From contig JBEKYR010000009.1 in assembly GCA_049510745.1 (NCBI GenBank), forward strand, positions 64,001 to 128,000: DNA of 64,000 bases, written 5' to 3'. This DNA is from Verrucomicrobiota bacterium. GTDB taxonomy: Bacteria > Verrucomicrobiota > Verrucomicrobiia > Limisphaerales > Palsa-1400. Positions 2 to 13,895 of the stretch are shown here, piece by piece (positions within the stretch are counted from its first letter, which is position 1; every line of letters starts with the position of its first letter). A program made the translations under genes and the position numbers. The notes under the pieces are model-generated. The model was not told the DNA's origin. It did no database searches and saw nothing but the letters and a program-made list of their open reading frames with translations.

Positions 2-1522
2 TATTTCTCGATCCAAGTGGGCCTGCGGGGGCTGACCCGCGTGCGGCAGGAAGTGTTCGCGCGCCTGCAACGGCTCTCGCTGCGTTTTCACCAGGGGGCC
101 AACGCGGGCGATTTGATTTACCGCGCTTCGTGGGACACCTACGCCTTCCAGACTTTGTTTCAGCAAGGGTTGATGACCTTCGTCACCGCGCTGCTTTCGC
201 TCCTGCTCATGGTCTGCATCATGGCGCGGCTCAATGGGCCGCTGACGCTGGTGGCGCTGGCGCTGGCGCCGCTGCTGGTCATGGGCATCCGTGTCTTTGG
301 CCGGGCCATGCGCGAACGGACGGCCCTGGCCCAACAAGCCGACAGCCGCGTGACCTCGCTGGTCCAGCAAAGCATCGCCGCGCTGCCGCTGACGCAAAGT
401 TACACGCGCGAAGAGTACGAGGCGGGGCGCTTCCAGGCGCAAGCGGTCGAGGCGCAGGCGCGGCGGCTTTCCCAGCACGGCAGCGAGCTGGCTTATGGGT
501 TTGTCGTTGCCGCGATTTTTGGATTGGGCGCGGCGCTGACGGCGTGGCTCGGGGCCAGGCAGGTGCTGGCGGGGGCGCTGAGCATCGGGCAACTGTTGGT
601 CTTCCTCTCCTACCTGCTCCAGCTTTACGAACCGCTCAACCAATTGTCCTTCGTCGGCGCGACCGTCGCCGGGGCGACGGCCGGGGCGCGGCGCGTTTTT
701 GAGATTCTCGACACGCCGGAGAGCGTCCCGGATGGGACGCGGACGCTGAGTTTGGAACCCCGACTGGTTTCGGGGCAGGAATCCAATCCTCCTTCGCCAG
801 CGCCGCGGAGGATAGGGATTCAAAGTCTCGCGTTCCGGGGGGTGTCGTTCGCTTATGAGCCGGGACGCGAGGTATTGCGCGAGGTCACCTTCTCGCTGCA
901 AAGCGGGGAGGCGGCGGCGGTGATCGGGCCGAGCGGGGCGGGCAAGAGCACCCTGCTCCATTTGTTGCCCCGGTTCTTCGATCCGACGCGCGGGGGCATC
1001 GAGTTGGACGGGGTTGATTTGCGGGAATTCCGCCTGCAAGACCTCCGCCGCCAGATGGCGCTGGTCTCGCAGGAACCGATCATTCTGCCCGCCACCGTGG
1101 CCGAAAACATCGCCTACGGCAAACCCGGCGCGGCGGCGGAGGAGATTGCGGCGGCGGCGCGGGCGGCGAACGCGGCGGCCTTCATCGAGAAACTTCCGCA
1201 ACAATTCCAGACCCGCATTGGCGAAGGCGCCGCGCGGTTGAGCGCGGGCGAACGGCAGCGGATCAACCTGGCGCGCGCTTTTTTGAAGGACGCGCCCATC
1301 CTGCTGCTGGACGAACCGACCAGCGCGCTGGACGCGGAGAGCGAGAGGCTGATCGCCGAGAGCCTGCGGGAGTTGTTGCGCGGGCGCATCGCCCTGATCG
1401 TGGCGCACCGCCTGGCCACCATTGCCGGCTTGCCCCGCGCGCTGGCGCTGAAGGAGGGACGGCTGACCGAGATGCGCACGACCGAGAGGGCGCATCCCGG
1501 TTCTTGGCAACCCTCTGGTTAA
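2..1522 (+). CDS. ABC transporter fused permease/ATP-binding protein (5'-truncated by window edge)
   Basis: TM segments followed by Walker A GPSGAGKST, signature LSAGERQR, Walker B ILLLDEPT; frame open to the window start. Confidence 0.9.
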   Translation, partial: YFSIQVGLRGLTRVRQEVFARLQRLSLRFHQGANAGDLIYRASWDTYAFQTLFQQGLMTFVTALLSLLLMVCIMARLNGPLTLVALALAPLLVMGIRVFGRAMRERTALAQQADSRVTSLVQQSIAALPLTQSYTREEYEAGRFQAQAVEAQARRLSQHGSELAYGFVVAAIFGLGAALTAWLGARQVLAGALSIGQLLVFLSYLLQLYEPLNQLSFVGATVAGATAGARRVFEILDTPESVPDGTRTLSLEPRLVSGQESNPPSPAPRRIGIQSLAFRGVSFAYEPGREVLREVTFSLQSGEAAAVIGPSGAGKSTLLHLLPRFFDPTRGGIELDGVDLREFRLQDLRRQMALVSQEPIILPATVAENIAYGKPGAAAEEIAAAARAANAAAFIEKLPQQFQTRIGEGAARLSAGERQRINLARAFLKDAPILLLDEPTSALDAESERLIAESLRELLRGRIALIVAHRLATIAGLPRALALKEGRLTEMRTTERAHPGSWQPSG

Positions 1523-1640
1523 CAAGAGACAATGGCTCGCCCCACTCAGGCGCAAAAGAACGACCAATGTAACGCCTCAGTGACGCCGGGAAAAAGCGGA
1601 CCTTTAAAAAAATTTTCATTTTGCCGTCTGCACATTTTCC

Positions 1641-1670
1641 TTGACAAAGGGAGAGAATCGAGTCTAGCAT
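1641..1670 (+). promoter_or_regulatory. sigma70-like promoter, copy 1 of hairpin unit
   Basis: TTGACA (1641-1646), 18 nt, TAGCAT (1665-1670); similar sequence recurs at 13593-13621. Confidence 0.6.
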
Positions 1671-1702
1671 ACCCGCATTGCGGCTTTCAATGCGGGTATG
1701 CT
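1666..1702. repeat. perfect 15-bp inverted repeat with 7-nt loop, copy 1
   Basis: AGCATACCCGCATTG-CGGCTTT-CAATGCGGGTATGCT; 25-nt core identical to 13623-13647. Confidence 0.95.
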
Positions 1703-1887
1703 GCGATTTCGTCTTCGCCCCAATCTCTGGCGATGTTCTCGATCTGTTTGCCGAATGGTCACTCTTGTCCAGGAACGATTTCCGCCGGCGACGCCCGCCG
1801 TTGCCAAGGCTTCCGTCTTCGTTAAAACTCCGGCGGACAAGTTGGCGGACCAGCCGACGCGTGCGACCGACGCGGTCGCACTTCTGA
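1690..1887 (+). CDS. putative small protein, homologous to the segment at 13664-13741
   Basis: ATG inside the hairpin 3' arm; FAPISGDVLDLFAEWSLLSRNDFRR aligns ungapped to [25 protein letters not shown] (12/25 identical). Confidence 0.45.
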   Translation: MRVCCDFVFAPISGDVLDLFAEWSLLSRNDFRRRRPPLPRLPSSLKLRRTSWRTSRRVRPTRSHF

Positions 1888-11151: not shown

Positions 11152-11547
11152 TCATGGCTTTCGGAGGATGGCGGCGAAGATCAGGTGCAGTTCCTTCGCT
11201 TCGCGCCATAATGTCTTGGCTTCCTCTCTGGTGTTTGGATTGGCGGCGACGGCCATTCTCAGCCAGTATTTTGTTTCGCGCGCTTCCTTTTTGCACGTGC
11301 CGATTTTGAGGCGGAATTCCTTCCTGGAAACGGCGTCGTCGGCTTCGCAGTAATTGGCTCCAACGCTCGTCCCAGAACGCACGATTTGTGAAACGATCGG
11401 ACTTGTCACGGCGTTTGCCGGCAGTTTTTTTGCAAACGCGATGATGGCCTCGCCAAAACACGCCGTCCGTTCTTCGAGGTCATACTTCGGTTTCGCCGGC
11501 GTCGTAACGCCGTTTAGGATTTCGTCATTCGTCATTCTTTTCGTCAT
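11152..11547 (-). CDS. four helix bundle protein (23S rRNA IVP-like family)
   Basis: YDLEERT, QIVRSGTSVGANYCEA, SRKEF, KEARETKYWL. Confidence 0.93.
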   Translation of the reverse strand: MTKRMTNDEILNGVTTPAKPKYDLEERTACFGEAIIAFAKKLPANAVTSPIVSQIVRSGTSVGANYCEADDAVSRKEFRLKIGTCKKEARETKYWLRMAVAANPNTREEAKTLWREAKELHLIFAAILRKP

Positions 11548-13417: not shown

Positions 13418-13592
13418 TGAACAATGCTCATCGTCCAAACGAGAGTACCCGCCCGCCAGGCCCGTGGCAAGCCCAAGGCTCAAGCCGCGGTGTGGCGGCG
13501 CGCATCTCAGTTTTTGGCAGGGATCGGACAGGGTCGCAGGAGGTCCAAAAACCGAGATACGCCCGTCGGCCCGCCCGGATTCCAGATTTTTC

Positions 13593-13621
13593 TCGACAGA
13601 GGGGAAATTTGAAGTTAGACT
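13593..13621 (+). promoter_or_regulatory. sigma70-like promoter, copy 2 of hairpin unit
   Basis: TCGACA (13593-13598), 17 nt, TAGACT (13616-13621). Confidence 0.55.
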
Positions 13622-13653
13622 CCCCGCATTGCGGCTTTCAATGCGGGGAGTCT
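13617..13653. repeat. perfect 15-bp inverted repeat with 7-nt loop, copy 2
   Basis: AGACTCCCCGCATTG-CGGCTTT-CAATGCGGGGAGTCT. Confidence 0.95.
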
Positions 13654-13741
13654 CAACTCTGAATTCGCCAAAATCCATGACGATGCCCTCGCTTTGTTCA
13701 TCAAATGGTGCCTGTCGCCGCAGCCTGATTTCTGCCGGTGA
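13628..13741 (+). other. putative small peptide frame, frameshifted sORF or sRNA homologous to 1714-1791
   Basis: frame open from ATT at 13628 to TGA at 13741; hairpin ATG (13641) is out of frame; 52/78 nt identity to copy 1. Confidence 0.4.
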
Positions 13742-13895
13742 GATGCCGGCGGAAGGGACGGATCCCGCCTGCGCGCTGCGGCGGCGTCCCGGCTTGGGGA
13801 TTGTCCAAAAACTGAGATGCGCCCGGTGTGGCGGAAGCCGCGGAAGAGAGTTGATGGGCCACTGTGCTCAAGCGCGGAAAACGCCGGGGGGCGTC

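Follow-up and report, generated by a model that had tools for sequence, protein, structure and literature searches.

A promoter-palindrome cassette common to unrelated MITE families in Verrucomicrobiota

Why should two separate loci of one bacterial genome carry the same promoter, each with its -10 box running into a perfect palindrome? The question arose from a stretch of 64,000 nucleotides of a Verrucomicrobiota bacterium (contig JBEKYR010000009.1, positions 64,001 to 128,000), which is referred to here as the window. An initial annotation, made from the letters alone, had described two intergenic loci with a sigma-70-like promoter, a 37-nt hairpin and a 78-nt segment that read as a peptide. 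The described anatomy holds. Both hairpins are perfect, with 15-bp stems and the loop CGGCTTT; their inner 25 nt are identical and 3 positions of the outer 6 bp differ. The promoter boxes extend over 1641-1670 in copy 1 and 13593-13621 in copy 2, and the 78-nt segments align without gaps at 52/78 identity and translate as had been written. Because the hairpins, folded as DNA, give z-scores of about -5 (-4.6 to -5.7), and because this cassette accounts for 27 of all 55 perfect hairpins with 13 bp or more in the 5.6 Mb genome, they lie far beyond chance. The features are collected in Table 1.

Table 1. Features of the two cassette copies in the window, and related MITEs elsewhere
Feature	Position	Strand	Remark
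Left end of UPF0236-type MITE (carrier B family)	1488..1568	+	overlaps last codons of upstream ABC-transporter gene
Left terminal inverted repeat of IS66-type MITE (carrier A)	1569..1594	+	same end on full-length L231 and L233
T-rich tract and -35 box TTGACA, copy 1	1635..1646	+	-35 hexamer unvaried in 14/14 carrier-A copies
-10 box TAGCAT (TAnnnT), copy 1	1665..1670	+	18 nt after -35; +1 predicted at 1677
Perfect palindrome, copy 1	1666..1702	.	15-bp arms; 7-nt loop at 1681-1687
"Peptide" segment, copy 1: non-coding left end of third MITE family	1714..1791	+	
Another, unrelated dispersed repeat adjoining copy 1	1795..1850	+	12 matches to a 30-nt piece, <=6 mismatches
9-bp target-site duplication, left copy	13489..13497	+	identical to 13825-13833
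Complete 327-bp UPF0236-type MITE (carrier B), carrier of copy 2	13498..13824	+	autonomous partner L232
T-rich tract and -35 box TCGACA, copy 2	13587..13598	+	both unvaried in 14/14 carrier-B copies
-10 box TAGACT, copy 2	13616..13621	+	17 nt after -35
Perfect palindrome, copy 2	13617..13653	.	15-bp arms, 4 bp more past a one-base bulge
Third-family MITE end ("peptide" segment) nested in carrier B	13664..13741	+	
9-bp target-site duplication, right copy	13825..13833	+	
123-bp MITEs with IS66-type ends (G000, this genome)	C4:41310-41432, C16:1630-1752, C18:46822-46944, C55:23940-24062		

The two loci do share their parts, as had been claimed, but they are neither plain intergenic DNA nor the only two: both are parts of MITEs, and they are 2 of 30 copies in this genome. 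Copy 2 has both terminal ends of its carrier: the terminal inverted repeats lie at 13498-13520 and 13802-13824, and inside the element a further end occupies 13543-13565. Copy 1 has left ends only, in the order B-type end (1488), A-type end (1569), cassette and two other repeats. It is a nested, truncated composite, since its carrier-A end lacks a matching right end; a sibling of its left carrier-B end, on contig C44, retains the right end. The palindrome of copy 1 is a shortened form of the 20-22-bp family stem.

Several other observations were made in the window. The carrier-B end at 1488-1522 provides the final 11 codons and the stop of the upstream ABC-transporter gene. After copy 1, a small gene at 1907-2257 has no Pfam match and precedes an ECF sigma factor gene; its middle resembles by eye a histidine-kinase dimerisation helix with its His. 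An imperfect, AT-rich inverted repeat at 2295-2424 belongs to a family common in this genome, and a small gene at 11152-11547 resembles four-helix-bundle proteins.

The 30 copies were found by a profile search of the genome (E <1e-10); 25 sites match the core pattern. Types A and B have 14 copies each; of the remaining two, one is a chimera, which joins the left arm of carrier A to the right arm of carrier B, and the other is cut by a contig end. Nearly all lie inside MITEs of two unrelated families, IS66-type and UPF0236-type, where we take UPF0236 to stand for ISKra4/ISLre2. Type A carriers are elements of 167-200 bp with inverted ends; among 14 paired elements the cassette is present in 10 and a 7-8-bp duplication in 13. 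Type B carriers measure 320-355 bp, are flanked by 9-bp duplications, and end like a 1.5-kb element encoding a UPF0236 protein. The autonomous partners of carrier A are full-length IS66-family elements (L231 and L233, in two relatives) that encode DUF6788 and an IS66 transposase, and the partner of carrier B is a UPF0236 element (L232) which occurs in relatives with the same ends and a 9-bp duplication. With terminal inverted repeats, target-site duplications and autonomous elements sharing their ends, the carriers are ordinary MITEs. A guess from the end sequence that carrier A is IS4 was dropped, as its full-length partners are IS66.

The cassette itself is absent from the autonomous partners L231-L233 and from L358-L360, and it has no ends or target duplication of its own; its flanks differ between subfamilies. 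No intact autonomous partner element was found in this genome, and no autonomous source of the cassette in the genomes and loci searched here. Carriers that are free of the cassette hold other palindromes inside. In the 123-bp MITEs of Table 1, which have 8-bp duplications, a pair of GTAG-type REP-like hairpins replaces it. The autonomous element L231 has a short palindrome of its own at about 295-385, just before the start of the DUF6788 gene, and this is probably an autoregulatory operator.

The initial annotation had put forward, as a possibility, a promoter gated by its structure, with a small amphipathic peptide or an sRNA as its product, possibly type I toxin-like. This was suggested by the identity of the 78-nt segments and by their shared-looking translation in the two window copies. 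In a larger alignment of 21 copies, from which one spurious row was left out, in-frame stops occur in 13 of the 21 and in 9 of the 15 hairpin-bearing ones, and variation is equal over the codon positions (41/41/40); there is no coding signal. The segment is the left end of a third MITE family. Of its 29 profile matches 14 lie away from any hairpin, and among the IS66-type copies it accompanies the two nested ones but none of the other 12. An ATG occurs in the right arm of 134 of 137 distinct variants; a mini-ORF starting there was considered and rejected, since no conserved frame opens at that position. No conserved short toxin ORF with start signals, as in type I toxin-antitoxin systems, was found. 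A conserved sRNA fares no better: nothing 3' of the stem is common to the carriers, and the predicted transcripts fold at z +0.6 and +1.2, which is not more stable than shuffled sequences. Beside 107 distinct cassette loci no ORF recurs except translations of the repeats themselves. The peptide is thus refuted, and a promoter for a peptide or sRNA is as a whole highly improbable.

Nor does any gene recur beside the cassette: 219 neighbouring frames (134 of 175 and 85 of 97 candidates) belong to unrelated families. The neighbours of single copies include an IS110 gene at a distance of about 690 bp, integrase genes located at the 3' ends of genes, and a UPF0236-like transposase gene (family assigned by eye) on the far side of the promoter.

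The distribution of the cassette was examined in samples that include partly incomplete genomes. Exact patterns detected it in 6 of the 30 other family genomes, whereas 293 genomes from other families of the order gave no match. The covariance model gave matches in 21 of the 30 family genomes (E <=0.05), and among 150 genomes of the order a broader model brought in 3 more, all from other families, of which two have several copies. Outside the order, 149 genomes gave one weak match, and no corresponding hairpin was found there. Metagenomes contributed 77 loci, and public records with the full hairpin are mostly titled Verrucomicrobiota. Viral contigs gave no match to a 23-nt pattern and four to a 19-nt pattern, all of them core-only.

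Copy number ranges from 0 to about 30 per genome, and some copies persist at one site between species. Relatives have further carriers, with ends starting CAGGG and 9-10-bp duplications, another type with 9-bp duplications and, in G008, a 320-bp family with ends at CTAG-like sites (read by eye). One internal cassette is thereby common to at least five end types. A strict test for ends plus duplication was passed by only 17 of the 137 variants, and many copies are therefore decayed or lie outside any recognisable carrier.

Such a distribution could also be produced by a self-mobile, REP-like hairpin that is moved by an HUH (Y1) enzyme encoded elsewhere, that gains single-stranded DNA from its promoter and that prefers MITEs as targets. 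The unrelated flanks of the subfamilies, the uneven copy number and the A/B chimera would agree with this, as would tandem arrays in G016 that start in or next to the core. A conserved head and foot with a loop of free length would suit a hairpin-reading protein, and Y1 genes are common in these genomes. However, the cassette has no GTAG or CGTC tag and its foot is A/T-rich in the 137 variants. None of 30 Y1 loci of five relatives (loci were available for 30 of 34 matches) has the cassette within about 1.5 kb, none was seen beside the 7 Y1 genes of G000 among the matches listed, and no empty-site pair with the cassette alone inserted was found. We regard independent mobility as distinctly unlikely. 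Long Y1 genes of G000 (about 300-330 aa, at C6:131326, C8:660 and C10:27500) are accompanied by inverted ends of the TIRYT kind, not by REPs.

The G016 arrays (L002 and L012) consist of 102-bp and 111-bp units, with junctions in or next to the left hairpin head, which leaves the full stem and the promoter to the first unit alone. Arms parted by a long insert, a form we considered, were seen only as such arrays. A near-perfect multi-kilobase inverted duplication at L268/L288 (G017:C5, about 197000-202000) has its centre in a broken transposase gene; it could be a real foldback or else a fold-back artefact of the assembly.

Across the family the cassette has a fixed order: a T-rich tract, TTGACA or TCGACA, 16-18 nt, TAnnnT and the palindrome. 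The palindrome pairs over 20-22 bp (15 in most copies here) and has an A/T-rich foot, a variable middle and a CATTG head, whose invariance is overstated because the searches were seeded on it. The loop is 7-10 nt long with many sequences; an invariant loop was an artefact of exact-match searches and disappeared when the covariance model was used. Of the 14 carrier-B copies in this genome, 8 have a decayed loop.

At stem positions 2-15 of the 137 variants, 1,899 of 1,918 cells are Watson-Crick pairs (99%), with 4 G·T, 6 A·C and 9 others, and there is no excess of G·U over A·C. Most RNA helices do show an excess of wobble pairs. The loop is oriented one way in 97 variants and the other way in 35, and it flips relative to homologous flanks in at least three lineages. 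The lack of a wobble excess and the two loop orientations argue for a structure at the level of DNA rather than RNA, which the initial annotation had named among its options.

Covariation between the arms is very strong. In one set 14 of 20 pairs change on both sides (199 cells against 58 in shuffles) and in a second set 18 of 20 (328 against 102), although pairing was in part a criterion for choosing these sets. With the 25-nt core as the only query, however, all 69 distinct metagenome contexts proved to pair over 11-22 bp, and pairing is also present in the matches to a pattern that left arms and loop free. Seven same-site or sister pairs have 17 two-sided and 3 one-sided changes, or 11 and 3 when the least certain sister pair is omitted. 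A one-sided intermediate is seen in G008 (L457), and the middle of the arms diverges at a neutral rate. An apparent likeness of the outer stem to a XerD arm is accounted for by the complement of the -10 box.

The covariation is real; the proposal that pairing itself is selected is weakened by the 17:3 ratio and the neutral arm middle, because polymerase template switching, which homogenises the arms of inverted repeats and inverts their spacer, yields such changes without selection (PMC5941160, PMC8604942). The covariation is therefore probably due to template switching and not a proof of selected pairing. As far as sequence comparison goes, it shows a DNA process acting on the palindrome and not by itself selection on pairing.

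Conservation of the promoter is a separate matter. A -35-like box is present in 130 of the 137 variants, a count which is partly circular as the box was used to set the orientation; the same does not apply to the TAnnnT found 16-18 nt further on in 97 of these 130 (shuffles: mean 10.6, maximum 20). The -10 box occurs in two registers, lying within the left arm in one and straddling the foot of that arm in the other, so that the overlap of the left arm with the -10 box of a conserved promoter is borne out across the family. In the MITE families of this genome, 0 of 12 sites of the -35 box segregate against 32 of 59 neighbouring sites (p 3e-4). Divergence in the G008 family (14 copies) is 0% for the -10 box and the head, 6% for the -35 box, 30% for the spacer, 28% for the arm middle and 22% for the backbone, and the spacer is 16 nt long in 14 of 14 despite its divergence. 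To avoid model bias, G008 copies were also collected by backbone only. Among the best 30 of 55 such matches there are 27 left ends; by hand count 26 of them have TAAAAT, and the -10 box of the 27th is broken by a foreign insertion.

These figures bear on the simplest alternative, a neutral passenger: an old promoter fragment that was spread by MITEs and whose arms are kept perfect by template switching alone. The neutral drift of the arm middle fits, and template switching is reported to conserve perfect inverted repeats in bacteria (PMC5941160). Against it, the -35 box, the spacer length and TAnnnT are fixed while their neighbours drift, and template switching cannot hold these. For that reason the boxes are read as selected, and a neutral passenger is improbable. 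Judged by the pattern of substitutions, the promoter boxes are under purifying selection inside selfish families which have no gene to express.

The same promoter consensus occurs at 108 other sites of the genome, 83 of them in co-directional or divergent spacers and 1 in a convergent spacer, so that elsewhere in the genome it marks spacers of the promoter type, and the cassette supplies about one fifth (26/134) of the near-consensus sigma-70 sites. An apparent co-orientation with downstream genes (23/29, 44/62) was discarded as an artefact of divergent spacers, in which either orientation scores. An enrichment in divergent spacers (12 divergent and 0 convergent of 28 in this genome) was also discarded; it is close to the baseline for long spacers and to carriers free of the cassette, and the excess is reversed in the diverged copy set. 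Within co-directional spacers the promoter and gene directions agree in 11:5 (this genome), 13:11 and, by hand count, 12:13 cases, and there is no clear bias.

The lack of bias counts against an insulator acting at the RNA level, in which read-through RNA would fold the full stem as a pause, terminator or RNase III site and the internal promoter would restart transcription, making insertions less polar. In favour of such a role, the predicted start lies inside the left arm, so that only transcripts from outside can form the full stem; these fold at z -3.0 to -3.8, compared with +0.6 to +1.2 for the predicted transcripts from the cassette's own promoter. IS200 has a terminator at its left end that shields it from transcription entering from outside, and its ribosome site is concealed by a second hairpin (PMC4513863). 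The persistence of some copies at one site across species would also agree. In addition to the orientation data, however, the stem lacks the G·U excess, no U-tract terminator is called on it in the two window copies, and no conserved ORF follows the right-arm ATG. The insulator is on balance unlikely.

A further alternative is that MITEs have captured a promoter together with a repressor operator, in which a dimer reads two CATTG half-sites in duplex DNA, and thus carry a regulated outward promoter; template switching would have lengthened the palindrome and would keep it. The conserved core spans about -5 to +20 relative to the predicted start, a classic operator position, and the half-sites are far more conserved than the arm middle. 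An XRE-family gene of this genome and its close homologues in four relatives have the same 6-bp half-site in an upstream palindrome, with a 3-nt gap. In the cassette, by contrast, the half-sites are 7 to 10 nt apart (12 in G160, of another family), and such variation changes their helical phase. The neighbouring genes form no regulon, the XRE subfamily is distributed unlike the cassette, and the covariance model does not score the XRE loci. An operator is rather unlikely. The XRE-family gene (L239, G000:C12:149224-149560) is apparently leaderless, with its conserved palindrome directly before the start codon and a further half-site upstream, an arrangement kept in the close homologues of the four relatives.

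The reading we prefer is that the cassette is a non-coding unit of about 75 bp, carried as cargo by unrelated MITEs, whose palindrome would be opened by RNA polymerase into a cruciform that favours transposition of the carrier. We assign it a probability of roughly 40%. In this sequence of events the promoter would fire and the bubble, at about -11 to +3, would fall on the left arm in both registers. The left arm would be melted as the polymerase opens the promoter, and early scrunching through the loop may nucleate the hairpin, whereupon the palindrome would extrude as a hairpin or cruciform. Extrusion would hide the -10 box and shut the promoter off once it had fired. Where the structure is extruded, template switching would copy or erase arm mutations and flip the loop. 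The cruciform may benefit a short carrier as a flexible hinge or by local unwinding, aiding any DDE transposase, for example by helping two ends only 170-330 bp apart to meet in the transposase complex. Such a benefit would explain both selection inside selfish families and capture by unrelated transposase families. In its most general form, the cassette would be a transposase-independent mobility enhancer, a self-opening unit that MITEs recapture, in which extrusion by the polymerase raises transposition while the arms rewrite themselves and the loop flips; in this form the proposal is doubtful.

Several findings weigh against the cruciform. The hairpin is off-centre and keeps no fixed distance to the ends (about 110/55 bp in carrier A and 135/190 in carrier B). 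A GC-rich core and a loop of 7-10 nt make spontaneous extrusion slow. A passive hinge leaves the near-invariant CATTG head and the A/T-rich foot unexplained, a purely selfish role does not need persistence at one site between species, and for many copies no pair of ends that would enclose them can be recognised.

The interior of a MITE is commonly regarded as decayed filler, and here an internal cassette is common to several end types. If the preferred reading is true, host transcription and DNA topology would be linked to MITE amplification. Even if it is not, the more than 130 variants form a natural series for measuring bacterial template switching. They also carry a warning, as perfect covariation in a perfect palindrome is no proof of structured RNA.

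The initial annotation had recognised no known family, and the comparison with Rfam agrees: there were no matches at the gathering score in the window, and at a loose E-value a piece of the window and seven further loci gave only sub-threshold matches to miRNA or sRNA hairpins. A literature search returned no description of the cassette; ISfinder, subscription papers and supplementary repeat lists lay outside its scope and may bear on novelty. The GAAT/AAAT foot and the internal TCAA are reminiscent of the ends of IS608; the geometry of the cassette differs, and no paired ends or TnpA partner were seen in the loci examined. IS10 and IS50 have a comparable hairpin for fold-back protection, which is full only in transcripts from outside.

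The left-end hairpins of IS200 likewise form in full only in outside transcripts and adjoin the element's own promoter (PMC4513863). Unlike in IS200, no transposase gene, ribosome site or terminator tail follows the cassette, and the wobble signature of RNA is missing. REP, REPIN and TIR repeats of RAYT and TIRYT, of which REP and TIR repeats are known from Verrucomicrobia, share with it the extragenic palindromes, the patchy copy number, the tandem arrays and the complementary stem variants (PMC3733652). The cassette differs in lacking a GTAG/CGTC tag, in a much longer stem (most REP stems are given as 6-9 bp in PMC3733652) and in its built-in promoter, and it flanks no Y1 gene among the loci tested. 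Inverted repeats maintained by template switching have the same arm homogenisation and spacer inversion (PMC5941160, PMC8604942); they explain the covariation, but leave the conserved promoter and its recurrent capture by MITEs unexplained.

Repeats that combine a promoter with stems are already known in the Correia elements, REP2 and IR-A (PMC3184786). REP2 of Neisseria and IR-A of Borrelia are dispersed intergenic repeats with a promoter and internal inverted repeats; they are described as having a ribosome site and an ATG and as lying immediately upstream of the genes they drive (PMC3184786), whereas the cassette has no conserved ORF and no orientation bias towards its neighbours. The Correia elements of Neisseria are non-autonomous, like the elements in which both window copies lie, with terminal inverted repeats, target duplications, promoter sequences and stems (PMC3184786). 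In comparison with Correia elements as described there, the promoter of the cassette is internal cargo and not part of the carrier end, the cassette occurs in carriers that belong to unrelated transposase families although the autonomous partners of these lack it, and its -10 box is embedded in a long perfect palindrome whose arms vary in the middle. With its conserved -35 and -10 boxes at 16-18 nt the cassette has a predicted sigma-70 promoter, and as judged from its sequence it lacks defining features of REPs, type I systems and operators and matches no Rfam family. It is a real promoter-palindrome cassette, common to unrelated MITEs and apparently undescribed.
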